DNA from: Escherichia coli
GTDB taxonomy: Bacteria; Pseudomonadota; Gammaproteobacteria; Enterobacterales; Enterobacteriaceae
Direction: 5' to 3' (one strand)
Length of the DNA: 64,000 bases
Assembly: GCF_022846255.1 (NCBI RefSeq)
Contig: NZ_AP025682.1
The notes beneath the pieces were generated by a model, which ran no database searches, was not told the origin of the DNA, and saw only the letters and a program-made list of their open reading frames with translations. The position numbers were made by a program, and so were the translations under genes. How positions within the stretch are numbered: the stretch's first letter is position 1; every line of letters starts with the position of its first letter. Positions 34,769-51,431 of this stretch are shown piece after piece.

Positions 34769-34990
<222 letters not shown>

Positions 34991-35102: not shown

Positions 35103-36152
35103 TTTGAAAACTGCCTGTACGGCAGTGAACAGCGCCCGCTTTTTTACCGCGTCAGCGCAGCGTTTCTAAGCTGCCTGTACGGCAGTGAACTCCCTGATTC
35201 AGTTGCGCTCCCCGACGAGCTGTTTCTAAGCTGCCTGTACGGCAGTGAACCGTTGGCGTTTCGCGGCAACAGGTTTTTCAATTTTCTAAGCTGCCTGTAC
35301 GGCAGTGAACGTAGTTTTGATTCCAGCGATAACTGCCTATTTATTTCTAAGCTGCCTGTACGGCAGTGAACGTAGTTTTGATTCCAGCGATAACTGCCTA
35401 TTTATTTCTAAGCTGCCTGTACGGCAGTGAACGATCAGGCCCGGCTTTCCCCACACGTTCGTATTTTCTAAGCTGCCTGTACGGCAGTGAACCGCCTGCC
35501 ATTCAACCTGCAAATAGTTTTCGATTTCTAAGCTGCCTGTACGGCAGTGAACGAACTGTGGCACGAGGTTGCAGGCGTAAGACTTTTCTAAGCTGCCTGT
35601 ACGGCAGTGAACGCCATCTTTGAATATAACGCCCCGATTGTGATTTTCTAAGCTGCCTGTACGGCAGTGAACCCCTACCGTTTTAATAAATGGGATTTGC
35701 ATTATTTCTAAGCTGCCTGTACGGCAGTGAACGCTGAGGTGTTTACAATGCGTGCCGTGCTGGTTTTCTAAGCTGCCTGTACGGCAGTGAACTCTGTTTT
35801 TCGTCAGCAGGATTAAACCAGGCATTTCTAAGCTGCCTGTACGGCAGTGAACTCTCATCAATTACGGGTTCGTTGGCTGGATCTTTTCTAAGCTGCCTGT
35901 ATGGCAGTGAACGTCTTCTGCGCATCCGTACCACTCACCAATGATTTCTAAGCTGCCTGTATGGCAGTGAACTTAATCGGTAACGTTGCTCTAATTCCCC
36001 CTCTTTTCTAAGCTGCCTGTATGGCAGTGAACCCAGCGAGAATTGAGGCTGTTTGCCGTGTGCTTTTCTAAGCTGCCTGTATGGCAGTGAACATAAACGC
36101 GCGCAGGTTGTTGAGGTGCTCGAGTTTCTAAGCTGCCTGTATGGCAGTGAAC
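35103..36152 (-). CRISPR. Type I-F CRISPR array A: 18 repeats, 17 spacers (16 unique)
   Basis: 28-bp repeat (RNA sense on minus strand GTTCACTGCCGTACAGGCAGCTTAGAAA) at 60-61 bp period with 32-33 bp spacers; degenerate terminal repeat at 35103..35130; five repeats at 35885..36152 carry a loop variant. Confidence 0.97.
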
Positions 36153-36423
36153 TGGAATAATAGCAGACTATCCGATTGATTTACTGTTAAAACTTACAAA
36201 ATCGCAGATTCAAACCCTTTTTCCAGACTTCAAAACAGAAATAAACAAAATCAATGAGTTACATTTCGCCCTAAAAAAAGGGTCGATTTGGTATTTCTTC
36301 AATCTCATATTTTCTGCATAGCTTTTGATAAACAATTGACCAGAACACATACGGTCATAATCTCCGTCCCGCGAACAGCGTGTTCATTGCGTAACCAAAC
36401 AAATCAATCTATATAAATTCTTC

Positions 36424-36452
36424 TTGACCGTTTCACTCCAACTCCCTATAGT
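36424..36452 (+). promoter_or_regulatory. Putative sigma-70 promoter of tRNA-Ser
   Basis: TTGACC - 17 bp - TATAGT followed by GC-rich discriminator (agcgcccc), about 40 nt upstream of the tRNA. Confidence 0.55.
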
Positions 36453-36495
36453 AGCGCCCCGTTGCCACCTATGAGGTCTGGCAGCAAAACAATTT

Positions 36496-36583
36496 GGTGA
36501 GGTGTCCGAGTGGCTGAAGGAGCACGCCTGGAAAGTGTGTATACGGCAACGTATCCGGGGTTCGAATCCCCGCCTCACCGCCA
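36496..36583 (+). tRNA. serW: tRNA-Ser (anticodon GGA)
   Basis: 88-nt sequence GGTGAGGTGTCCGAGTGGCTGAAGG...TTCGAATCCCCGCCTCACCGCCA with long variable arm and encoded CCA. Confidence 0.93.
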
Positions 36584-36704: not shown

Positions 36705-37718
36705 CTAGTCGTAGGATACGGCAAATATGGCTTTGCTTTGGACTTCTCCAGGCTGTAGTGCTTCCTCCTTCACGCGGACATATTTCGCGGTAATCGGGAA
36801 GGTGTACTGATTCTCAATGGCCGCCATTTTAGTTAGTTTGTTCATCAGAGTATCACCCAGCTTTAACGGTGTTGTTGCGTTACCATTATAAATCTGGAAC
36901 CCAACCCCCTTAGCACCATTAAGCGATGTGTTTTTCAGAATGGTTCCACTATCATCCCATTCACCGCGCGCAACTTTAAAAGTCACTGGATTAGTCGTGA
37001 CGTTATAAACACTGTCACAATTTAAAACCAGATCTATAGAACCTGATTTCGTGTTATTGGCAGATTGCATCTCACTTACCGTTGTTTCTGGCATTCTTAT
37101 TTCGTAAATCGGTTGCGAAAAACTACAGGTTGTGGGTTTGTGTTTGATGCTAAATTCTATATTCTGAGTGTAAGAAACATCACTATTTAGTCGCCCAGTA
37201 ACCCAACATAAAAGCCATGATATGATATTATTATTGCAAGAGTTATCTGTTAGTATGCTAATAGCGGGGCGCGGGATGGTTATCTTGTCGATATTGGTGG
37301 TTATAGTATGGTCTACTTTACTCGTTGGCCCAACATATTCTGCCTTAAGAGTGAACGGTTTGGTATTTATCACATCCTGAGTGTTATATTCTTTTGGAGA
37401 AGCACCCAAGGAGTCAGTTCCAGTAGAAACAGGAAAACTACTACTCTCAAGGTTAAATTTCATAAAAATTGATTTCCCCGAATCCGACTCTCTAAGTTCA
37501 ACGATATAATCTTTTAACGGTGTTGCATAATACATTTTATCGCTTGCTGCATTACATGTGAACGTATCGACTAAGTTTGTATGAATTACAGCCGTTACCG
37601 TATCTTGTGCCATATCCAGTTCTATCGTTTGGCTTGCTGTTGTATTAGGCCCCAAGGTACATTTAGCCTGCCCCAAAAAAGGCAAAGCCAGTAAAAACAA
37701 AAACCAATATTTCTTCAT
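36705..37718 (-). CDS. Fimbrial adhesin / minor tip subunit (chaperone-usher pilus)
   Basis: ORF 36705..37739 (TTG-initiated in the track); likely ATG start at MKKYWFLFLLALPFLGQA signal peptide; last gene of the operon; AT-rich codon usage. Confidence 0.6.
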   Translation of the reverse strand: MKKYWFLFLLALPFLGQAKCTLGPNTTASQTIELDMAQDTVTAVIHTNLVDTFTCNAASDKMYYATPLKDYIVELRESDSGKSIFMKFNLESSSFPVSTGTDSLGASPKEYNTQDVINTKPFTLKAEYVGPTSKVDHTITTNIDKITIPRPAISILTDNSCNNNIISWLLCWVTGRLNSDVSYTQNIEFSIKHKPTTCSFSQPIYEIRMPETTVSEMQSANNTKSGSIDLVLNCDSVYNVTTNPVTFKVARGEWDDSGTILKNTSLNGAKGVGFQIYNGNATTPLKLGDTLMNKLTKMAAIENQYTFPITAKYVRVKEEALQPGEVQSKAIFAVSYD

Positions 37719-37729
37719 AAACAAATCCT

Positions 37730-40222
37730 TTAACGACAAATATAAACTTTATTCTCATCAATAACGTTATCAAAGGTAATAGTGCAGAATTGTTCCTGCT
37801 GTTTATTAACCGAGACGCGAATCGACGCGGGAACATCATTGGTGCGAATAAATATCCGACTTCCCTGTCCTACTAAGCCCACATTATTGCCACTTTCATC
37901 TTCAACCTCATAACCAAACGGCAACGGAGAGCCATCAGGTCGTTGGGAGATGAAATACCAGGGCTTGCGTTTATCAGTCTCAAACTGCGTCATCACTACC
38001 GCACCACGATAAGGAACGGTGTTTTTACGGTTACCCAGTAGCGCCACATCGCTTTTACTGTCGGCAATATCCAACATCAACGTATTTTCACGATACGGCG
38101 TCAGGTTGTCATAAATAGCGTAGCCTCTGCTATCCGTGGTCAAGTAACGATATCCCTGCACCGCAGCCCCCTCCAGCCCAGGTGCTTTGACAATGGCAAA
38201 CGTATCGGAAAGTCTGGGAGCCAGTGCCACCCCGTCCGACCACGCGACGAAACCGCCTTGAATATTACCGCTAACCTGTTGATATCTTTTCGACTGGCTA
38301 TAGCTGCCACCAATAGTCGCCAATGGCGCACGCCAGGTCAGGTTTCCACCTGCTGTTGTTTCGCTGCCCTGGTGTTGATGGCTCAAGTTTGCCCCGTAGC
38401 TGAACTGATCGCGGCTCCCCGCTACACCGCTGAGGCTGGTATTATTCGACCGATAGCCGTCTTTATCAAAAGTGGTCGAGTTAGAAACAAATAAATCTCG
38501 TCGTTTTTCAGTGATTCCATCGCCCCACGAGAAGGGAATTGAGAAATATAAGTTAATGCGTCTATCTTCGCGGTTATCTTCGTCGTAGGTCTGGCTAACA
38601 GACAAGGTATAACTAAGGCGTTCCCAGGAGTTCGAATAGCTGAGTTGATAATCTTTCCCTGTCCCGCTGCGTTCCCAATAATCCCGCCATTGACCGCTGA
38701 CCGACAGATATCCCCAATTTTCCGGTAATGACTGGTTTATATTTACAGAAAAGCTGTTCTTACGACCAAAATCGTACTGATAATAGTCGGCGATATCATA
38801 AACTGAGTCATCTTCTCGATTATAACTTTTCCTGTTATTTGCCCTCACGTGATCGTTAAAAGTACGATAATCTCGAGAAGAATAACGCCAGGCCGCCAGC
38901 GAAAATTGCGTTCCACTTTGAGAGAGATATTTGTTCCACGCAATCTGATAACTTTGACCATTAAACACATCACCGTTATCTTGTTCACTGTGGGAATGGG
39001 TAAAATCAACAGATACCGCACCAATCGGTGTATTCCATCCCGTGCCGAGAACAAACGATGAGTAATTATCAGACAACTGCGTGCCAGCATAGAGAGTCAG
39101 CAAATTATTAAGGCCATACTGATAGCTTCCCTGAATAAAATCTGACTGATCGCTGGCTCCCTCAATACGGCTACGTCCGACAGCAAATTCATATTTCGAA
39201 ACGCCCGGTTGCAACATATTTGGTACCGATGAATAAGGTACACGATAACGCGACACCGAACCGTCAGCTTCTTTAACGGTAACTTCCAGATCGGCACCAC
39301 CACCTGCAAGTTGCAAATCATCAATGGCGAATGGACCTGGCGGAACTTCTTTCTGGTAAACCACAAAGCCATTTTGTTCGATAGTGACAAGTGCGTTACT
39401 TTGGGCAACACCACGCACCACAGGCGTAAAATTCTGTTTAGAGTTCGGCAACATCTGCATATCGCGCCAAAGGCGTACACCGCGAAAACGCACGGAGTCA
39501 AAAACATCAGAACCGGTATACATTTCACCAGCACGCAATGTGCCAAGAATATGTGGAATTCCGCGCTCCAGATATAACGTGTTACTCTTCCATTTACCGC
39601 TGTTATCGTCACTTTTCGTATAATTGGCATTTGAATGCAACTGCCAGCCCAGCAGATTCAAACCACTATTCAGATTTAAATAGCTACTTTTATTATCTCC
39701 TCCGTGCTTATAATTACTGTAATACTGACTGGCATAATAAGAAGTATATAATGCGTTAATCCCACGATCCCATGCCTCAGGTGGAACATATCCGCGTTCA
39801 TACTCAACAACATAGGCCTGGGGTACACTCAACTTCAGGTTAAAATGCCCAATATCATAGTCAACGCTACCTCCCTGTACTGCATCCCGAAGAGGTACGC
39901 ATTCTACGCCTTTATCAATATTAATTCCTTCAGTGAGGATACCTATTTGCTTTAACTGCTCCCAAGATAAACATGTCGCATCCGGATCATCTTTAATGTC
40001 GACATTATAGTGTCCGCGCCACTGATTATTCAGGTAAACATCCATATCATAGATACCTGGCATCGGCTTATCACTATCAATATGATAGTCAGAAATTTTT
40101 TCCCCATTTAATCCGCCAATCATAAAATGGGTGTCAAATGTTTCATCTTCCGCCCATGCAAGCGACGTTGCCAACACCGACAGGATAGCCAGCGTAATAG
40201 AATTAAGTTTAGACATAATCAA
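37730..40222 (-). CDS. Fimbrial outer-membrane usher protein
   Basis: 830-aa ORF, size and composition typical of FimD/PapC ushers, between chaperone and adhesin. Confidence 0.85.
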   Translation of the reverse strand: MIMSKLNSITLAILSVLATSLAWAEDETFDTHFMIGGLNGEKISDYHIDSDKPMPGIYDMDVYLNNQWRGHYNVDIKDDPDATCLSWEQLKQIGILTEGINIDKGVECVPLRDAVQGGSVDYDIGHFNLKLSVPQAYVVEYERGYVPPEAWDRGINALYTSYYASQYYSNYKHGGDNKSSYLNLNSGLNLLGWQLHSNANYTKSDDNSGKWKSNTLYLERGIPHILGTLRAGEMYTGSDVFDSVRFRGVRLWRDMQMLPNSKQNFTPVVRGVAQSNALVTIEQNGFVVYQKEVPPGPFAIDDLQLAGGGADLEVTVKEADGSVSRYRVPYSSVPNMLQPGVSKYEFAVGRSRIEGASDQSDFIQGSYQYGLNNLLTLYAGTQLSDNYSSFVLGTGWNTPIGAVSVDFTHSHSEQDNGDVFNGQSYQIAWNKYLSQSGTQFSLAAWRYSSRDYRTFNDHVRANNRKSYNREDDSVYDIADYYQYDFGRKNSFSVNINQSLPENWGYLSVSGQWRDYWERSGTGKDYQLSYSNSWERLSYTLSVSQTYDEDNREDRRINLYFSIPFSWGDGITEKRRDLFVSNSTTFDKDGYRSNNTSLSGVAGSRDQFSYGANLSHQHQGSETTAGGNLTWRAPLATIGGSYSQSKRYQQVSGNIQGGFVAWSDGVALAPRLSDTFAIVKAPGLEGAAVQGYRYLTTDSRGYAIYDNLTPYRENTLMLDIADSKSDVALLGNRKNTVPYRGAVVMTQFETDKRKPWYFISQRPDGSPLPFGYEVEDESGNNVGLVGQGSRIFIRTNDVPASIRVSVNKQQEQFCTITFDNVIDENKVYICR

Positions 40223-40230
40223 TCCCTGAT

Positions 40231-40911
40231 CTATTTGACGGTTTTTACTTTTTCACTCAAATAGTTCCCATGGTCATCAATCAGCGTAATTGTATATTGA
40301 TTGATGGCTAAGGCTGTGGTGATAGTCTTATCTGACCAGGGGGCTAATAACAACGTTTCGTGATTTATTTTTCCACTTCCCATCAACTCAGGAATAGTTA
40401 TCCAGTTTGCGGAGTTGTTTTTGATATTAATACCACCATTGGCATGCTTAATGCTCAGACGACGAAAACTTTCTTTATCTACGCCAGTAAGTCCCTCTGG
40501 GCGGTAGATAAATTTAATACGATTCTGCATGGCGAATTTTATGCCATTCTTATCTTCTAATTCGGGGCAATTAGGTGGGATGTCTAGCACATTAAGGAAG
40601 AATAGGCTTTCGCGATCTTTTGGTAGTGTATTCGCCAATTTTTTGATTTTGAGTTGTTGCCCTTCCCCCCCTTTTACGTGAGCGACCGGTGGCGTCAACA
40701 CAAACGGAACATGAATTTTTTCTGGGGGTAGACTGGTATCGCCATCATCAATCCATGACTGAACCAGGGCGCTACGATTACCTTCATTCATTAACTGAAC
40801 GGTAATCTCTTTTTTCTTTTCTGGATAAATAACACGAGTGCCGTAGATATAGACACCACTCCACGCAGGCGTGACTATGCCGGCCAGCAAGAAGGCTATT
40901 AATTTTTTCAT
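40231..40911 (-). CDS. Periplasmic pilus chaperone (PapD/FimC-like)
   Basis: 226-aa ORF with signal peptide MKKLIAFLLAGIVTPAWSG and chaperone-like N-terminal region. Confidence 0.8.
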   Translation of the reverse strand: MKKLIAFLLAGIVTPAWSGVYIYGTRVIYPEKKKEITVQLMNEGNRSALVQSWIDDGDTSLPPEKIHVPFVLTPPVAHVKGGEGQQLKIKKLANTLPKDRESLFFLNVLDIPPNCPELEDKNGIKFAMQNRIKFIYRPEGLTGVDKESFRRLSIKHANGGINIKNNSANWITIPELMGSGKINHETLLLAPWSDKTITTALAINQYTITLIDDHGNYLSEKVKTVK

Positions 40912-40964
40912 TAAACAATCCTTGTTTGAGAAATCGGCGACCGAAGCCGCCGATAAACACGATA

Positions 40965-41513
40965 TTAATCTGTCACGACAGTCATTGTCAGAGCAGAGTT
41001 AACCGGGCCAGCAGTCACCGCATCACCTGATTGCGCGTATTTCGCACTGAAATTTAGTGTATATTCATTAGAGCTGTTTTTTTCTAACTCAATACTTTTA
41101 TCACCGTCAATCTGTTGAGATTGCCCATCTGCACTCTCATAGTAGACAGCAAAACCAGCACCATTTGGGTTTGCCACAGTATTAATGGTGATATCGCTAC
41201 GATTTGCATCAAACTGACTTCTGGAAAACGTAATTCTGGGAGTCTCATCTCCTGTACATTTGACCGTCAGCGGTACAGTTGTTTTATTTGAATAACCATC
41301 ATAAATATAACCAGCGCTCTTACCATCAAATTGATCAGCACCAATATCGTTCATAGCAATAGTAGCCTGGCTATTTCCGATAAATTGACAAGTAGTTCCA
41401 ACCACATTACCGGTAATAACTAACTCACCCTGTTCACTCCCCTCCTCTGCAAAAGCCCCTGCACTCATAAAAAGAGAAGATAATACTGCAACTGCAATAA
41501 TTGAACGTTTCAT
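40965..41513 (-). CDS. Major fimbrial subunit
   Basis: 182-aa ORF with signal peptide and Thr/Ser/Gly-rich pilin-like composition; first gene of the operon, preceded by about 380 bp of AT-rich DNA. Confidence 0.75.
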   Translation of the reverse strand: MKRSIIAVAVLSSLFMSAGAFAEEGSEQGELVITGNVVGTTCQFIGNSQATIAMNDIGADQFDGKSAGYIYDGYSNKTTVPLTVKCTGDETPRITFSRSQFDANRSDITINTVANPNGAGFAVYYESADGQSQQIDGDKSIELEKNSSNEYTLNFSAKYAQSGDAVTAGPVNSALTMTVVTD

Positions 41514-41892: not shown

Positions 41893-42447
41893 TCAAAACC
41901 AGGGAATAGTGGCGGTTGCGCTTAATCCGTAACTACTAAATTCCCCTTTAACCGGTTCAGTAAGCAAATCACCATGACGGATAAACAGCTTGAACTGCTG
42001 CTGACTCGACAAACTATTCATATTAAGAAAGGGTAAATCGGTCCGCTGTTCAGCCTGCGTCGCCAGTCGCTCAATCGCCTGTTCTTCAGTTAGCCAGCCT
42101 TTTTTCACTGAACGCCTTAACAGACGCTGAGGGTTACTTTTTACCTGTACACGACTTACGACTCGCCAGCCTTTAATTTCAGGTACTAGCGTGACAGGCG
42201 AACATTGGCAGTAATCAGTAAGCCCTTTACGCCACGTAGAGGCTTCAAGTTCTTGCAATGCGGGGGCACTGCCGTGCAAGCGTAAACGCGCTCCCGGCGT
42301 AACATTCACGTCCGGGAAACTCACGCCGATATCACCTTGCCCTCTTGCACCTAATGCCCGATGCAATTTGGCAAATAACGCCGCCATCAACATTTCGCTC
42401 GAAAATTCAGGATCTGGCAGAACGCGGATCTCAAGGTAGTGATCCAT
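41893..42447 (-). CDS. cas6f: Type I-F CRISPR endoribonuclease Cas6f (Csy4)
   Basis: ORF 41893..42489; start placed at MDHYLEIRVLPDPEF; last gene of cas operon. Confidence 0.9.
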   Translation of the reverse strand: MDHYLEIRVLPDPEFSSEMLMAALFAKLHRALGARGQGDIGVSFPDVNVTPGARLRLHGSAPALQELEASTWRKGLTDYCQCSPVTLVPEIKGWRVVSRVQVKSNPQRLLRRSVKKGWLTEEQAIERLATQAEQRTDLPFLNMNSLSSQQQFKLFIRHGDLLTEPVKGEFSSYGLSATATIPWF

Positions 42448-42457
42448 TGGCAGCTCC

Positions 42458-43459
42458 TTATTCCGATTTCTCACCAAAGACACCGCCACGGATCAGCACA
42501 GCCATCACGTAGCGCTGCTGATCAACGTCTGGTTTCATCCCTTTAGTCACCCAATTGTCCAGTAAGGTATAAAAGTCGAGTTTTTCTTTCGGTTGACGGC
42601 AGGCCACACCGCGACTGGTTACAGAACCGTAAGGTTCCACGGCTATAGCCCCCAATTCATCAACCTTTGGATGCCAGGTATCAATGGTACGTAAAGCATT
42701 GCCAATCTTCTGAGAGTGAATACCGGCAATGCCAGCCACCTGGTATAACACGCGACTTTTACTACTGTTGCTGTCGAGTACCAGCTCCTGCGACGGAAAA
42801 ACTTCTTGCCCGGCACCAAGACGAACCTGCGCTTCAACGGTAAGCATCACCCACTCTTTTGCGCTTAATCCTTGCTCTATAATGGCCGCCAGCTGCGTGA
42901 CCGCTGCCTGTCCCTGGTCAAATTGACGTAAAGAGAAGTCATGGCTGTTAAAAGTCCAGGAAGTGTCGTTAGCAGTAACTTTCACCTGGATCTGCTCAGC
43001 ACCAATGCGGTTGCGCCACAGAAAACGACCATTTGCCAGATTCAGCGCATAGCGAAGCGCCAGCTCTTTAAAGCCATGTTCGCTGATGTAACCTTCAATG
43101 ACCCCGGAAAGCGCCTCCTGGTAAGCCATATCATTACATACTGACGGTGTGGATAAATTACCCAGCACACGCAGCGTAAACACCACCTTTAACGTATCCG
43201 CATCTACCGGAAGCGAAGCCACATCCACCCGTTGCAGGTTAGCTTTTTGGATTTCAGCATCCAGTTTTGTGGAGTCACTGGTAATCGTATTTTTCAAGCG
43301 ATTAGAGATAGTTCCGCGAACCGCTTTCTCCTGAATCTCAATGGGTTGCCATACATTTCCTTGCCAGTTACCTGCGTACATTACCGCGTCAGATGTTGCC
43401 AGTTTGCGCTCAAATGCCAGTACCGATGCCGTTTTTATTACTACAGGAGCCTTTGCCAT
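42458..43459 (-). CDS. cas7f: Type I-F Cascade backbone subunit Cas7f (Csy3)
   Basis: 333-aa [36 protein letters not shown]..., position in operon. Confidence 0.9.
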
Positions 43460-43469
43460 AATTATGTCC

Positions 43470-44393
43470 TTATTCTAAATCGTCATATTCATTAAAAGTA
43501 AAATCATCACCAGCTGGCATTGCCGAGCAATAGTAGCCAGTGTCCGTTGTGCGGTAACGCCACATCAGCGGTTGCAAGTCAGTTATGCGATGTAATCCGC
43601 GCCATTCGCCGATGCCATATACCGCTTCGGCAAAAGCAAATGGCGTCACGGTGTCGCGCGCATTTTCAACTTCACCGGGTGCGTAAACAGGAGAAATGCG
43701 TTGGTAGCCACACATTAACGGTACCAGGAAACCAGGCATTGGCTTCGGCTGATATGTCCATTTTGCGCTGTTGTCTTCTGCCGGAGATTCGGCCTGATAT
43801 TTAACGGCAGCAAAATCAAGCCAGGCATCCAGCAATGAGATGTCGGGATGTTGTTGGTGATGTTCAGCCAGCCATTCACTGCGATCGTAAAGCGCATAGC
43901 CAGGCATTAAACGCCAGATGATTTTACGCAGTTGCTTTTCATCTTCAGGCGCATGAAAAAGCTGTGGTTCGCGCATGTCAACAATGCTGCCGCCCGCCAG
44001 TTTGTGGCTCTGGCAGAGCATTTTCAGATGGTCACACAGAGCTTTTCTGCCATATTCACCATTGGTGATTTCCCCTTCACATTCAATGAGCAAAGATACC
44101 GTCAGATGCATACGGCCCTCTTCATTGAACGAAGCGGTTTTACCTTCTCTGGTTAGTGGGTTACGGGTGAGAGCAAACTGAAAATACCGCCCAGAGCTAT
44201 ATGCCTGAATATGTTGTTCATGGCTAACTACCGCGCAACCGTCAAAACTTACGCCAAAATCATCCGCCACTTTGCGAGAAAGCGCATGAACATAGCCGAG
44301 AAAATGGGTCATCGCCGGGAATCCCCAGGTCAACCCGGAGACGGCGTTAGCGTTTTCGATACGTATATGGGGTAACAAGAGCAGATAACTCAT
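43470..44393 (-). CDS. cas5f: Type I-F Cascade subunit Cas5f (Csy2)
   Basis: 307-aa ORF, operon position between csy1 and csy3, overlaps csy1 stop by 4 bp. Confidence 0.88.
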
Positions 44394-45697
44394 TTCAGCG
44401 CCTCCTGCAAAACAGCTTCCATTTCACGCATCCGTTGAGCGAACAGAGACTGGCTGCGCCATTCTCTTTGCTCGACAGCGCCCACGTCGAAACTGGATTT
44501 TTTCAGGCGATAGTTGAGCCAGCGCGCAAAATCATCGGCCACCGCCCCCTGCCAGTCGTTTTTCTCCCGCTCCAGTTTGAAAACCTCATCGGACAGGCTT
44601 CGCCACGGATCCAGCCAAAGCTGCTGATGGCGAGGTAAATCTTGCGATTGCGCTGACCATCCCTGCCATTTTTCTTGCTGAAAAGCGGATGCCTGCATGA
44701 ACAGCAGATCGATCAACTCATCAATATATTTCGCCCGCGCAGTTCGGATATGAACATTATTTATGTCAACCTTCAACAGGTAAGTCATCCGGGCGATAAT
44801 GCCCGAAGCCGCCCTATTGAAATCGCCGCGTAAGGCAAAAATACTGAGCATGTTTTGTGGTGCGCGATCCAGCGTCGCCCAGGTAGGCGGCATTGACGGC
44901 AACAGCCAGACGCGCCCCCCACGCACACTATTGAGCAATGAAATATTTTGCGGTTTTGTGCCTCCGAAATGCATTTCAGCAAGATTCGGGAAACGAATAT
45001 CTGGCTGTGAGTGCCATTTACCTGCTTTGTGCGCTTCGCGAATGGCTTTCGATTCCTCACTAAAGCGCACGGCGGTTAGCTTTTCATACATCGCCTGCGC
45101 CAGTGAACTGGAAAACAGTGGGCATAAGAGGTGATAACCATCCGCAACAGGGAAATAGATTTGTTTTGCCAGTTTATGGCTGGCAGGCCGTCCAGTTGTC
45201 CATGCCTGGCTAAACCCAGCTACCCACTGCTCCAGTTGCGCTTTATCCTCTGCAAACGTACTTAATGCCTGATAATCACCACGCTTCAGGCTGGCAAGCA
45301 GTGAATCTCCGTTCACATCAGTTTGTAGCAACTTTGCGACGTCAAGTGCAGCGGCGTTACCAATCGCGTCAGTAGCGACATTCGCCAACGATGCCGTGTT
45401 TAAATAGCTTTCGTTAGCGGAGGTTTCCAGATAAAAGCTACTGGCTTTAGAATCACCATGACTGAATTTAGCGCCATGAGTGACTAATTTGATTTGCCCG
45501 GCACGCTTTGCCGCATCCGTTAACCAGTGACGAGGCAGGTAGCGTGCCTCGAGTTCCTGCCGCTCCTGAGCGATGACGCTGGCATCCTCGCCCTGTTCCA
45601 GTCGCTTTGTTGCTTCTTTTTCAAAGGCCTCGACTTTGGGTTGCCTTCGCGAAGCGATATAGTCAGTGATAAATTGTATTAGCGCCGTTTTTTCCAT
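44390..45697 (-). CDS. cas8f: Type I-F Cascade large subunit Cas8f (Csy1)
   Basis: 435-aa ORF, AAGGAG RBS upstream of ATG, first gene of csy cluster. Confidence 0.88.
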   Translation of the reverse strand: MEKTALIQFITDYIASRRQPKVEAFEKEATKRLEQGEDASVIAQERQELEARYLPRHWLTDAAKRAGQIKLVTHGAKFSHGDSKASSFYLETSANESYLNTASLANVATDAIGNAAALDVAKLLQTDVNGDSLLASLKRGDYQALSTFAEDKAQLEQWVAGFSQAWTTGRPASHKLAKQIYFPVADGYHLLCPLFSSSLAQAMYEKLTAVRFSEESKAIREAHKAGKWHSQPDIRFPNLAEMHFGGTKPQNISLLNSVRGGRVWLLPSMPPTWATLDRAPQNMLSIFALRGDFNRAASGIIARMTYLLKVDINNVHIRTARAKYIDELIDLLFMQASAFQQEKWQGWSAQSQDLPRHQQLWLDPWRSLSDEVFKLEREKNDWQGAVADDFARWLNYRLKKSSFDVGAVEQREWRSQSLFAQRMREMEAVLQEALK

Positions 45698-45743
45698 CTC
45701 GGCTCCTTTCGTTAATCCATCAAATTGAAGTTGCTCCCTGACT

Positions 45744-45827
45744 TCACTGAAAAATCTCCGTAGCCCAACCAGGCTTCAGTACAACGACGCATACAGCAAA
45801 AGGGACAACACCCGTGGTGATAATCAT
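45744..45827 (-). CDS. Hypothetical 27-aa hydrophobic mini-ORF (MIITTGVVPFAVCVVVLKPGWATEIFQ); candidate Cre-repressed toxin or upstream leader peptide
   Basis: ATG preceded by AGGTGAG at 6-nt spacing; not in ORF track (too short); lies between the Cre-like target site and csy1. Confidence 0.2.
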   Translation of the reverse strand: MIITTGVVPFAVCVVVLKPGWATEIFQ

Positions 45828-45837
45828 GGATAGCTCA

Positions 45838-45871
45838 CCTAGAGGTATCTACGTTTTAATCTAGTAAAATC
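45838..45871 (+). promoter_or_regulatory. Putative Cascade binding site (CC PAM + 11-nt seed match to the psi-spacer), overlapping a putative minus-strand promoter and RBS
   Basis: cc-tagaggtatct at 45838..45850 is identical to the first 11 nt of the psi-spacer at 45969..45979; I-F PAM is 5'-CC on the non-target strand. Confidence 0.45.
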
Positions 45872-45940
45872 CATGCAATAACCAATAGTGATATTACCAT
45901 GCATGAAATATTTGCCACACAATGATTTAAAAACTAACAT

Positions 45941-46014
45941 TCACGCACTGCCGTTGGCAGCTTAGAAATAGAGGTATCTCCGGATACGGACTTGTAAACT
46001 GCCGTACAGGCAGC
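45941..46014 (+). ncRNA. Degenerate mini-CRISPR (psiR-psiS-psiR), CreA/CreR-like crRNA-resembling RNA gene
   Basis: psiR1 tcacgcactgccgttggcagcttagaaa (intact 8-nt 5' handle, shortened loop); 25-nt psi-spacer; psiR2 gtaaactgccgtacaggcagc (intact Cas6f hairpin, lacks 3' handle); orientation opposite to cas genes; possible promoter TTGCCA-17-TAACAT at 45912..45940. Confidence 0.5.
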
Positions 46015-46024
46015 CCGCGCCCCT

Positions 46025-49000
46025 TCACGGGGCGCGGTACACACCTAACCAGGGGTGATAACGCCAGTCATCGACCACATCTTCTTCACTGACGGGTACT
46101 CTCACCTCAGCAAACTTTTCCCCAACGCTTGCTATCTCACAACCTTGCTTATCAGCTAAATTCAACAAAACGTGTTGGTAATCCATCACGCCCCAGCAAG
46201 CGACACCGCTGGCGCATCTCACCTCTTCTCGCCTGAAATTCCCTTGCGCTTTACGCTCGTTGTCGCCCGTACGGGAATAGAAACGCGCTTCGCTTTCTTC
46301 ATCATCCATATGCAGAAAAAATACCGCCTCCGGCAAAGGGGAATAACGAAATGGCGTCTGGCGCTGTATCCAGCCGTTCCAGCTTAGCGGTGCACGCCAC
46401 CATTGCGCCGCCACCACATGTTTGCTTTTACTGCTCATCAATTCGGCGGATAAACGACTATGTTCTAGCTCCGCCAGTTTGTTGGCATTATTGGCAGACA
46501 GGATCCGCGGCAAGGCGTTAATCGTCCGGTAGTCCGCGATCGGAATCAGTTCGCAAATATCGTGGCTATTCAGCAAGTGTTCTTTTGTTTCGAAACCAGG
46601 CTTACAAAATGCGGGGGCTTTTTTCTGCAATGATTTGATATTGCTACGCAAAATAACCAGATTCTCACTGGTCGGCACATTTCTACGGTGGCGCTGAATA
46701 CGTCCGGCAAATTGAATTATCGAACGCATGGAGCTTGGTTCGATAATTCCCCAATCCGCATCCCAGTCACGCCCCACTTCTATAACCGATGTCCCCAACA
46801 CCACAAACAGATGGTGCGATTCCGGACGGTTATGTAAGGCATCTGCGATATCTTCGTTGTTCCAGAAATCGAGTTCGTTATGACGGGTAAAAGCGCGGTC
46901 CAGTCGCTTCTCAATATCTGAACGCACCGCCAGCGGGTGTCGGGAGTGGTAAACACAATAATGAATACAAACATTTTCTGGTGAAGGAATGGCAATCAGG
47001 GCTTTGGTCACTGCAACCAGTGGATTGATATTCGCGAAGCGCACCAGGCCCAGCGAAACGGTTTTACCGCTTTCGTGTAGCTGGCGATGCGCCTGATGCA
47101 ACTTCAGCATTTGCGTATGCACCGTCTGGGCCACACTTTCGGTAACATCCTGGATTGCAACTGATGCAGATGAAATCGAAGCAACACGCCCGAAATGCAG
47201 CCGCTCTTTTTCAGCCAGCATTACCGCCCGCCTGGCAACAAATTTTGTATGCGCATCGCGAAAGGCCGCTCCATCGCTAATTTGCGTGGCATCAGCATCG
47301 TTTTCGTCAAACCAGGCACAGCAAATATTGACGGGCCTGCCGTTGGTACCACAAGACGCCTGCCACATTTTACGCCCGGCAAGATAAGCCGCGAACAGCG
47401 CCTGAATCAGGCCTGGCGGAAGCGTCGCCGAAGAGAGTAACACCCGCGTTCCCAGCATCCCGGCCCAGTTCATCAAACGACATACCGCATGAAGATCAGC
47501 AATATCAAAGTCGTCGGGTTCGTCGAGCACTAAATCGCTGGTTAACAGACGCAACATCGCCGGAAGCTGTTTCCCGCCACGCACACCCTCGGTCGCGGAA
47601 ATAAGATGATCAATTGTCGCGACCAGAATCGGCGCGCTCACTAACGCCTTAAGTTTGCTGTCATCCTTCAACCATTTTTCCAGCGCCCCGGTATGCAGGC
47701 TGCCTTCGTACTTAACGAACTGTTGCTCCTCTGCCGGCGACTCTTGCGAGGCACTTCCACAATCATTGTCTATTTTTTCCTGCTGCCAGAGCTGTTTAAC
47801 TGCCGCCGAACCAATTAATACCGCCAGCTCATCCTCACCGAGTCCAAGTCGACTACGCAGAGCATCGCCGGTTTGCAAAGTCAGCGTACGCAATCCCAGC
47901 GCGACGGTAAAACGGCACCCTTCCCGCTCATCGGCAAGCGCATACATAATGCGGGCGTTCGCAAAGGTTTTACCGCACCCCGTCGAGGCCATATTAACGC
48001 CGAAAAATCCCTCCTCCCGGCTTCGTTCACGTAACGCTCGCGCCACATCCGAGGCTTTATCCTGCCAGCGATATTTCGCATCTGTAGCTCGCTGGCTAAA
48101 ACCTTTATGTCGGGCAATTGCCGGAAGAGAAGCCCGTGTGCGCATCAGCTGCCGCCCAAGCAAAAACGCATGATGTGCGACGCCGACCAGGTGCTCGTCC
48201 ACCCGTTGTTTGAGTGCGCCACTTTGCCTATCGCTATTTGCCCAGACGATATAATCCGGCTCCTGCCATTTTTGCTGCGCATCGCTTGAGGAATAGTAAT
48301 GATCGGCAAGCATCAGGCAAAAACGCGCCATATGTGAGGGGAACAACTGTTCCATCAGCCCGTATGTCTTTAAACCGAGCGCGTTACTTGCCCGGCGGGA
48401 AATCTGATGTGCTTTTTCTCGCCAGCTAGCACTCTGAAGCGGTGTTCCAGCCGGAAATTGCCAGACGTGCGCAAAATCCTGTTGTAACCAGTCATCTCTG
48501 CGGTGGTTAACGGCATTCCAGTCAGCATTAAGTTGCCTTTCCAGCCAACTTTCACACCCTTTGCAAGATTGTTCCGGTTGTGGCGAAAGATTCTCCGGAA
48601 TTCGATGATGGGAAAGGATCAGCCAACCTACCGTTTTGGCTAGCGGTTGCAGCGAAGTAAATGGGCTATCTGAAAATTGAGGCGTGTCTTTTAGCAGGCG
48701 TTCCAGAATCGCAGATTCATCATCTGCCGTAAGTTCGCCAAGCTTCGCCAGCCACACATCGTCGGGCCGATCACCGACAAACGCCTGAAAGAGCCGCAGT
48801 GAGATCCATTCATGTCGGTATGGTTGATAACTGCGGGCATTCTTTTGGGTCAGGCTTTGCTGAAAGCTGCGTCCGGATTTTCCAAAATCATGAAATAACC
48901 CGGCGATGGCTGCCAGCAGCGCAATGCTTTCCGCACATTGCCAGCGGTTTTCTTCCTTGTTCACCAGGCTGGTTTGCGTTGTGCGATTTGTGGGAACGCG

Positions 49001-49258
49001 CCCCTGAGCATTAAAACGACGAATATTACCCACAATCCACATCAACTCAATTTGTCCATTCTTCTTTAGCCAGTGACATGCCACTGCGGTATTTCGCCTG
49101 GCAGTTTTGCGCAGTAAACGGCGGAGTGTATTAACGCCTTCCAGAGTAATCACTGTTTGCCATGCGGCATCACCTGTACGTTCAGCAAACTGATCAATAA
49201 TACGGCAGCTTTCCACGCGGGCGTTTTTTGTACAGCGCGAGATAATCAGAACATTCAT
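46025..49258 (-). CDS. cas3: Type I-F Cas2-Cas3 fusion (Cas2 domain + HD nuclease + SF2 helicase)
   Basis: 1077-aa ORF; N-terminal Cas2-like region; HD motif LLAAIAGLFHDFGK; overlaps cas1 stop by 4 bp. Confidence 0.92.
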   Translation of the reverse strand: MNVLIISRCTKNARVESCRIIDQFAERTGDAAWQTVITLEGVNTLRRLLRKTARRNTAVACHWLKKNGQIELMWIVGNIRRFNAQGRVPTNRTTQTSLVNKEENRWQCAESIALLAAIAGLFHDFGKSGRSFQQSLTQKNARSYQPYRHEWISLRLFQAFVGDRPDDVWLAKLGELTADDESAILERLLKDTPQFSDSPFTSLQPLAKTVGWLILSHHRIPENLSPQPEQSCKGCESWLERQLNADWNAVNHRRDDWLQQDFAHVWQFPAGTPLQSASWREKAHQISRRASNALGLKTYGLMEQLFPSHMARFCLMLADHYYSSSDAQQKWQEPDYIVWANSDRQSGALKQRVDEHLVGVAHHAFLLGRQLMRTRASLPAIARHKGFSQRATDAKYRWQDKASDVARALRERSREEGFFGVNMASTGCGKTFANARIMYALADEREGCRFTVALGLRTLTLQTGDALRSRLGLGEDELAVLIGSAAVKQLWQQEKIDNDCGSASQESPAEEQQFVKYEGSLHTGALEKWLKDDSKLKALVSAPILVATIDHLISATEGVRGGKQLPAMLRLLTSDLVLDEPDDFDIADLHAVCRLMNWAGMLGTRVLLSSATLPPGLIQALFAAYLAGRKMWQASCGTNGRPVNICCAWFDENDADATQISDGAAFRDAHTKFVARRAVMLAEKERLHFGRVASISSASVAIQDVTESVAQTVHTQMLKLHQAHRQLHESGKTVSLGLVRFANINPLVAVTKALIAIPSPENVCIHYCVYHSRHPLAVRSDIEKRLDRAFTRHNELDFWNNEDIADALHNRPESHHLFVVLGTSVIEVGRDWDADWGIIEPSSMRSIIQFAGRIQRHRRNVPTSENLVILRSNIKSLQKKAPAFCKPGFETKEHLLNSHDICELIPIADYRTINALPRILSANNANKLAELEHSRLSAELMSSKSKHVVAAQWWRAPLSWNGWIQRQTPFRYSPLPEAVFFLHMDDEESEARFYSRTGDNERKAQGNFRREEVRCASGVACWGVMDYQHVLLNLADKQGCEIASVGEKFAEVRVPVSEEDVVDDWRYHPWLGVYRAP

Positions 49259-50244
49259 TGATCAGCCTTAGCCAGTGCCTGGGCAGTTTCCTGCAAAGAG
49301 GTGATCATGACATCCAGCGCATCCGTTTGTTGAAAGATATTGATGCAGCGTAGACGAAACTCCTGGGCATCTTCACCTGCCATCGCGGCGATAAATGCTT
49401 GCGGCATCACAAGGGCATCTTTAATCAGATCGGCAAGGTCAAAAACCAGCCCGCCGCGACGTGTTTTACCGTGCATTACTGCTAAACCGTGCGGGATCCC
49501 GGTTACCCACGCCGCCACTGCTGCCAGTCCATAAGCCAGATAATTCCCTTGATCGAGGAAGCGGTTGGCCATATCAATACCACCGCCCCGTTTTGCGCGA
49601 GTGAAATCGCCATACCCCACTGTTTGACTGACCATTTTGTATAACGCTTTAGTCAATTTGGCCTCTACGAGCATAAGCTGCGTATGGTTTTCTGCCGCGT
49701 CTATTTCTTCACGAGTACGATTCAGGAGGGTATGCAGCGCATTAACATCAGGTTGAAATGCGTGTTCACGCTGCATTTTCGAGCTGGACCAGTGCTTATC
49801 GATATGTGTCAGGCGGATTAACTGAAAACGTTTCGCGGCGGCAAGTCGTTTATCTTCAGCAAACCAAAAAGAAACCCACTGCTGGAGATACTCTGTAGGG
49901 CGATATTCACTTTGTGGGCTGAGCCAGGAGACATCAACATCCACTTCATTTGCCGAATACAGCGGCGTGCCATCCGTACCACAAAAGCCCACCATCACCC
50001 CGGCATGAGCAAATTCACGCATCGCCGCCTGAGTAACGGAAGTTCCCATTCCCAACATCAATGCCGTGGTATTCGCAATGGGGATATTCCAGTAGTACGA
50101 CTCTTTACCTTCGCTGGTGACATACTCCACCCGCCCACCATTCACCTGTACCCGGCATTTTTCCAGATAATAAATATTGGCGCGTTTGGAGTGGAGAATG
50201 GTTTTGAGATCGGAAGGCGTGAGGTAATTCGAAGACATAAACAC
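49255..50244 (-). CDS. cas1: Type I-F CRISPR integrase Cas1
   Basis: 329-aa ORF upstream of cas2-3, first gene of cas operon. Confidence 0.9.
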   Translation of the reverse strand: MFMSSNYLTPSDLKTILHSKRANIYYLEKCRVQVNGGRVEYVTSEGKESYYWNIPIANTTALMLGMGTSVTQAAMREFAHAGVMVGFCGTDGTPLYSANEVDVDVSWLSPQSEYRPTEYLQQWVSFWFAEDKRLAAAKRFQLIRLTHIDKHWSSSKMQREHAFQPDVNALHTLLNRTREEIDAAENHTQLMLVEAKLTKALYKMVSQTVGYGDFTRAKRGGGIDMANRFLDQGNYLAYGLAAVAAWVTGIPHGLAVMHGKTRRGGLVFDLADLIKDALVMPQAFIAAMAGEDAQEFRLRCINIFQQTDALDVMITSLQETAQALAKADQ

Positions 50245-50400: not shown

Positions 50401-51268
50401 ATTATCGTATTGTGAAACTACCTGTACGGCAGTGAACCGCGTAGAGCTGCTGCGCAAACTCGACACTCATTTCTAAGCTGCCTGTACGGCAGTGAACCCT
50501 CGTTCATCAAGGTGCTCAAAGCTTGACATTTTCTAAGCTGCCTGTACGGCAGTGAACGCCAAGAACGCTGTTACCGCTTCCCTGTGCGCTTTCTAAGCTG
50601 TCTGTACGGCAGTGAACCCAGATTGCCGAAAACATCGCCTTTGATGAACTTTCTAAGCTGCCTGTACGGCAGTGAACGGGCGCGGTGTCGTCCAGGATTT
50701 GGAGGCAACTTTCTAAGCTGCCTGTACGGCAGTGAACAACAGGTCGTCCAGCGCATCCCACGGATCCGGTTTCTAAGCTGCCTGTACGGCAGTGAACATC
50801 GCGCACACGCAGTCTTACATTTGCCACCATTTCTAAGCTGCCTGTACGGCAGTGAACGAGTGATTATTATGGCCCAATCGGACGATGACTTTCTAAGCTG
50901 CCTGTACGGCAGTGAACCTCCACCCGTGGTAAGCAGAAAGGGCCGTAACTTTCTAAGCTGCCTGTACGGCAGTGAACTGATCTGTTGCGATACTGACAGT
51001 ATCGTTAGCTTTCTAAGCTGCCTGTACGGCAGTGAACTGTTTTTTTGACGTGTAAACCGGGCGGTTTTTTTTCTAAGCTGCCTGTACGGCAGTGAACATC
51101 TCCGTATTTACTGTCCTCCCTGCTATCCATTTCTAAGCTGCCTGTACGGCAGTGAACTGCCAGTTTCGAAAACGTGCAGCAAATGCAGTTTTCTAAGCTG
51201 CCTGTACGGCAGTGAACTACCTTAATTTGAAATGAACCTTTGCCGCATATTTCTAAGCTGCCTGTACG
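50401..51268 (-). CRISPR. Type I-F CRISPR array B: 15 repeats, 14 spacers
   Basis: same 28-bp repeat at exact 60-bp period, 32-bp spacers; degenerate terminal repeat at 50401..50428 next to cas1; repeat at 50581 has a stem substitution. Confidence 0.97.
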
Positions 51269-51431
51269 GCAGTGAACTCAAATACTACACGTTTAGCTCG
51301 TTGTTGATAAAGAAAAATCATCTCATTTTCCTGCTGCCACCCTTTTTTATTCTTACCTTCCAGCACCATTAATTATCAACAACTTACCTTCACCTCCAAA
51401 AATAGGGTTTTCACCGTTCCCCCCTACAAAC

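Follow-up and report, generated by a model that had tools for sequence, protein, structure and literature searches.

The window, meaning the whole 64,000-nucleotide stretch of Escherichia coli DNA analysed here, carries a type I-F CRISPR-Cas locus in which infA, a first array (array A), a tRNA-Ser gene, the cas genes from cas6f to cas1, a second array (array B), and clpA follow one another in the order standard for E. coli I-F loci. The clpA-clpS region, 99.3% identical to that of many strains, identifies the window as E. coli. Each of the six cas genes gave an NCBIfam equivalog match well over the cut-off. The features of the locus are as follows.

34772-34990, plus strand: infA, the core gene flanking the trailer side of array A
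35103-36152, minus strand: array A as a whole, 18 repeats and 17 spacers
36153-36495, minus strand: leader of array A, 343 nt, at the tRNA-Ser end
36496-36583, plus strand: tRNA-Ser (GGA), the E. coli landmark between array A and the cas side
41893-50244, minus strand: type I-F cas operon, six genes, all full-length matches
41893-42447, minus strand: cas6f, full-length match
42458-43459, minus strand: csy3, full-length match
43470-44393, minus strand: csy2, full-length match
44390-45697, minus strand: csy1, full-length match
46025-49258, minus strand: cas2-3, full-length match
49255-50244, minus strand: cas1, full-length match
50410-51277, minus strand: array B, the second I-F array, between cas1 and clpA, 15 repeats and 14 spacers, all of 32 nt, with no duplicates

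Both arrays are built on the same repeat, TTTCTAAGCTGCCTGTACGGCAGTGAAC on the plus strand; its reverse complement, the type I-F repeat GTTCACTGCCGTACAGGCAGCTTAGAAA, is predicted to fold into a hairpin with a 5-bp stem (-8.6 kcal/mol). In array A, 12 of the 18 repeats are exact, five carry a single loop substitution, and one, the terminal repeat on the infA side (35103-35130), is degenerate; 15 of the spacers are 32 nt long and two are 33 nt. Array A is read on the minus strand, because the degenerate repeat lies at the infA end and the tRNA-Ser end has a conserved leader (98% mean column identity when aligned with those of four other E. coli I-F strains). A scan of the array and leader for promoter and terminator consensus sequences was uninformative. 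The orientation was confirmed by the spacers at 35433-35464 and 35853-35884, which have exact protospacers with a 5'-CC PAM in the minus-strand sense, located in a plasmid SprT-like gene and a lambdoid prophage gene; these protospacers also identify the array as a working immune memory. The SprT-like target gene occurs on E. coli plasmids of ∼34 kb (42 plasmid records), and the prophage target gene, in STEC384, is annotated as a type I restriction endonuclease. A third targeted spacer, in array B (50618-50649), matches a DUF3164 gene in two chromosomes.

Several other sequence features of the window were recorded. The five leader-proximal repeats of array A (35885-36152) all carry the same substitution (TGTATGG for TGTACGG, plus strand), which alters the first loop base of the hairpin and retains the stem (-7.8 versus -8.6 kcal/mol). 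The variant begins between spacers 13 and 14, counted from the trailer end, and fits a mutation in the first repeat that each subsequent acquisition then copied. Inside the I-F locus, between tRNA-Ser and cas6f, lies a chaperone-usher fimbrial operon of four genes (36705-41513), encoding a YehD-like subunit, a chaperone, an usher, and a 337-aa fimbrial protein. Thirty-five complete genomes have copies of this operon with ∼94% identity, on plasmids and in an island that is flanked by IS1 and includes a copy of the tRNA-Ser gene as well. Outside the locus, a 39-nt tandem repeat (25464-25733; 6.9 copies, 90% identity, with overlapping 18- and 21-nt periods) presumably lies in the linker region of ftsK, judging by its position relative to infA.

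Toward the trailer end of array A, the 33-nt spacer GTAGTTTTGATTCCAGCGATAACTGCCTATTTA at 35311-35343 is repeated identically at 35372-35404, with a single canonical 28-nt repeat (35344-35371) between the two copies. The elements of the duplicated region are listed below.

35283-35310, minus strand: trailer-side repeat of copy 1, canonical 28-nt type I-F repeat, where the periodic 61-nt stretch starts
35311-35343, minus strand: copy 1 of the 33-nt spacer, crRNA sense TAAATAGGCAGTTATCGCTGGAATCAAAACTAC, fourth spacer counted from the trailer end
35344-35371, minus strand: repeat separating the copies, canonical, from the repeat/spacer parse
35372-35404, minus strand: copy 2, the identical 33-nt spacer, fifth spacer counted from the trailer end
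35405-35432, minus strand: leader-side repeat of copy 2, canonical, where the periodic stretch ends

A preliminary description of this DNA had reported two identical spacers separated by one repeat, both of 33 nt while all others are of 32 nt. The repeat/spacer parse and Tandem Repeats Finder agree with the first of these statements, the latter program returning a period of 61 with 2.5 copies, 100% matches, and zero indels across 35283-35433; the parse also bears out the second, as the 29 other spacers of the two arrays are all 32 nt long. When up to three mismatches were allowed, the spacer was found at these two sites only in the whole window, and none of 100 shuffled controls gave a match. 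The repeat boundaries are unambiguous at this point, since the adjoining spacer bases do not extend the repeat, and the three repeats around the copies are identical, with no marker mutation by which an exchange could be traced. The duplicated units are the fourth and fifth oldest in array A. The copy number of two is the number as assembled, and the true number could be higher.

The duplicated spacer contains AACTGCCT (35326-35343), which is also present in the degenerate terminal repeat TTTGAAAACTGCCTG (35103-35130), and the spacer also has the motif CTGCCT, which recurs in every repeat; these resemblances are probably due to chance. On the minus strand, 35337-35861 forms a spurious ORF of 174 aa, composed of repeat-encoded VHCRTGSLE blocks, in which the frame shifts at the 33-nt spacer and the stop is the TAA that opens copy 1.

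A search for the protospacer of the duplicated spacer yielded no credible match in GenBank phages or PLSDB plasmids, where blastn returned partial hits at chance level only. Exact matches were likewise absent from IMG/VR, JGI metagenomes, and GTDB genomes, and neither of two 21-nt halves of the spacer matched in IMG/VR.

The comparison set consisted of 28 parsed arrays, taken from 14 other E. coli strains that have this I-F locus. Their 172 unique spacers comprised 159 of 32 nt, 11 of 33 nt (6.4%), one of 31 nt, and one of 34 nt. An adjacent duplicated spacer was present in three of the 28 arrays, those of strains MINF_1D (NZ_LR890198.1), 04-00955 (NZ_CP035498.1), and A36 (NZ_CP028739.1). The spacer order in MINF_1D is 10,11,11,12,13,86,87,88,89,17,90,91; spacer 11 occurs singly, between 10 and 12, in TUM13773, A22, and NRG 857C, and the array of PSUO2 equals that of MINF_1D except that spacer 11 is absent. 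In 04-00955 the order is 97,98,98,116,99, and three sister arrays read 97,98,116,99. In MINF_1D and 04-00955 the array was thus already established when the duplication arose, as their sisters have a single copy between the same older and newer spacers. The arrays next to infA of MINF_1D and PSUO2 (L006/L013), with spacer 11 doubled in one and absent in the other, look like reciprocal outcomes of misalignment at one unit, and the gain and loss of the same units in these arrays is the signature of repeat misalignment. As in the window, a single repeat-spacer unit is doubled in the array interior of each of these three strains, at the same two loci; in the strains the copies are spacers 7 and 8. 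They differ from it in that their duplicated spacers are 32 nt long and in that, for two of the three, single-copy sister arrays date the duplication after later acquisitions. A special role of the 33-nt length was rejected, given that 6.4% of unique spacers have this length and that the three other duplications involve 32-nt spacers. The preliminary description had taken the shared 33-nt length as a pointer to duplication; the length itself is incidental (11 of 172), and what survives of the argument is a modest contribution, in that a second capture would usually be 32 nt.

To find relatives of the window, we searched for exact matches to the fimbrial protein whose gene lies 550 bp from the leader. 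Contigs L018 to L027 share the fimbrial operon arrangement of the window, and two metagenome contigs, L019 (ENA ERZ929318) and L027 (ENA ERZ17811667), reach array A, with non-array flanks 99.97% and 99.95% identical, respectively, to those of the window. In the orientation of the window, L019 opens inside the duplicated spacer, of which the last 22 nt are present, and a repeat then leads to a complete 33-nt copy; after another repeat come spacer 6 (35433-35464), with one SNP at position 7, and spacers 7 to 17. L027 likewise opens with the final 26 nt of the spacer, followed by a repeat and a complete copy; a further repeat leads to spacer 6, spacers 11 to 14, and then its newest spacer, which differs from that of the window and is absent from it; spacers 7 to 10 are missing. 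In both contigs the loop-variant repeat begins at the same position as in the window. Both end inside the upstream copy, giving at least two copies each and leaving the older spacers beyond reach, and such an end is expected because a tandem duplication loops the assembly graph. One is a MEGAHIT-style k127 contig and the other a SPAdes-style NODE contig, and they come from different samples.

The concatenated spacers of arrays A and B found no matching array in 5,426 complete E. coli genomes, where the only matches were to protospacers in plasmids and prophages; none of these genomes has a spacer of either array in its own arrays. As exact-protein probes, a 162-aa version of the spurious array ORF from the window gave no record, a variant with one SNP gave L019 only, in whose metagenome assembly a 162-aa version had been called as a gene, and two shorter array ORFs gave no matches. 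In L018 (NCBI GCA_035828735.1, JAYNAB010000002.1) the csy-fimbrial-tRNA-array-infA layout is that of the window, the fimbrial protein is identical, and the flanks are 99.6% identical. Its 17-spacer array, trailer end included, has no spacer in common with the window, which suggests replacement of a whole array between close relatives.

L019 and L027 bear directly on whether the second copy exists in the genome or was created when an assembler traversed the repeat loop around a single copy twice. CRISPR arrays are difficult for short-read assemblers, and the break of both related contigs within the duplication indicates a graph tangle at that spot. A single-copy array cannot, however, assemble a junction of spacer end, repeat, and start of the same spacer, as k-mers spanning it would not exist in the reads; the duplication is thus present in at least three independent data sets. 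The identical junction was recovered in two more assemblies, from other samples and by other assemblers, and the SNP in one contig and the different spacer content of the other mean that neither is a copy of the window. The preliminary description had proposed a read-level check against an assembly artefact and a comparison with the same array in related strains; with the same junction in L019 and L027 an artefact is now unlikely, and we consider an origin in misassembly extremely improbable. The duplication is not an artefact of one assembly, and it is inherited. It is older than the split from the L027 lineage, because L027 has the loop-variant repeat too and its array departs from that of the window after spacer 14, and hence older than spacers 15 to 17, the last three acquisitions.

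The two copies could also have arisen if Cas1-Cas2/3, with the invader present, acquired the same prespacer twice in succession as independent events, in which case the copies would have been adjacent from the start. The cas operon and the leader are intact and the lineage went on acquiring spacers; back-to-back capture would likewise give adjacent copies, and no relative with a single copy was found among 5,426 E. coli genomes, JGI metagenomes, GTDB genomes, and an exact-protein index. Both copies, however, have the minority length of 33 nt (6.4% of unique E. coli I-F spacers), and, if length errors are stochastic, ∼94% of second captures would be 32 nt long. Among the comparable E. coli duplications, the two with a placeable history are also secondary events inside established arrays. 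In array groups of CRISPRCasdb, where repeated spacers are 3.3% of spacers, 695 of 805 candidates were duplications (86%), against 8 reacquisitions and 7 independent insertions (∼1% each) (PMC11472070). We regard double acquisition as unlikely. A further proposal, that the duplicate was retained by selection because two copies of the 33-nt guide raise crRNA dosage against a recurrent invader or mobile element, concerns maintenance rather than origin and is compatible with a duplication by repeat misalignment. Two sublineages retained the duplication while later spacers were acquired and nearby ones were deleted, although tandem duplicates are expected to disappear more quickly than single units (PMC11472070); a dosage benefit, if real, would explain this survival despite the quick collapse expected. 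Persistence in very close relatives (flanks at least 99.95% identical) needs no selection, though, the databases searched held no target for the duplicated spacer, and unrelated spacers are duplicated at a similar low rate in other strains. Selection for double dosage is unsupported and appears very unlikely.

The best explanation, which we hold with considerable confidence, is that the tandem unit derives from one capture followed by misalignment of the repeats. The 33-nt spacer would have been captured once, at the leader end of the I-F array between infA and tRNA-Ser. Later, neighbouring identical 28-bp repeats would have misaligned by one 61-bp register, through slipped-strand mispairing at the replication fork or unequal exchange between sister chromosomes, placing a second repeat-spacer unit beside the first; the duplication would then have been inherited. 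The sequence does not separate replication slippage from unequal recombination, and the order of events proposed here, capture and then later duplication, is drawn by analogy with the other arrays. The pre-crRNA transcribed from the minus strand would be expected to yield two identical 61-nt crRNAs after cleavage by Cas6f, that is, a double dose of one guide without a new target. The exact tandem unit, the type and orientation of the array, the junction in independent relatives, its age relative to spacers 15 to 17, and the secondary origin of the comparable duplications elsewhere are shown directly; we infer the single capture, the misalignment step, and this crRNA output. The preference expressed in the preliminary description, for duplication by slippage or recombination over two acquisitions, is thus supported, by analogy with the three E. 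coli cases and the literature.

This literature places the event among the familiar ones. Duplication is the commonest non-polar event in CRISPR arrays (PMC11472070), duplicated spacers range from 1% of spacers (Pseudomonas aeruginosa) to 11% (E. coli CRISPR2.2) (PMC4524480), and tools for reconstructing array history treat duplication as a routine event (CCTK, PMC10457644). In the accepted model, short, close direct repeats misalign at the replication fork independently of RecA, which yields deletions as well as duplications; direct proof of this in CRISPR arrays is still lacking (PMC8047081). The duplication in array A is real but ordinary, both the event and the array being of known types. 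It adds no new immune specificity, and strain typing or reconstruction of acquisition history should treat the two copies as a single unit. It also marks a site where short-read assemblies break, both related contigs stopping there, and the locus is a clear illustration from nature of repeat misalignment in E. coli arrays of type I-F.

Array A corresponds to CRISPR4 of Touchon and Rocha 2010 (PMC2886076), which lies between tRNA-Ser and infA, and probably, in our reading of PMC3903273, to CRISPR4.2 of the CRISPR-III locus. It resembles E. coli CRISPR4 in its 28-nt repeat, 32-nt spacers, flanking genes, leader, and orientation, and the locus does so in its partner cas operon and in a second array adjoining clpA. 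The window differs from the known E. coli I-F locus in its spacer set, which is absent from the 5,426 complete E. coli genomes, and from the 14 compared strains in the 4.8-kb chaperone-usher fimbrial operon between tRNA-Ser and cas6f, which none of them has. Compared with documented duplications, the window shows no difference in kind; its unit holds a 33-nt spacer, and its single-copy ancestor has not been observed. Repeat-spacer duplications described previously (Garrett 2021, PMC8047081; SpacerPlacer, PMC11472070; Kupczok et al. 2015, PMC4524480; CCTK, PMC10457644) follow the same pattern as the window, with identical spacers one repeat apart in the interior of the array and flanking repeats unchanged, and those studies score this pattern as duplication, attributed to the misalignment of short, close direct repeats.
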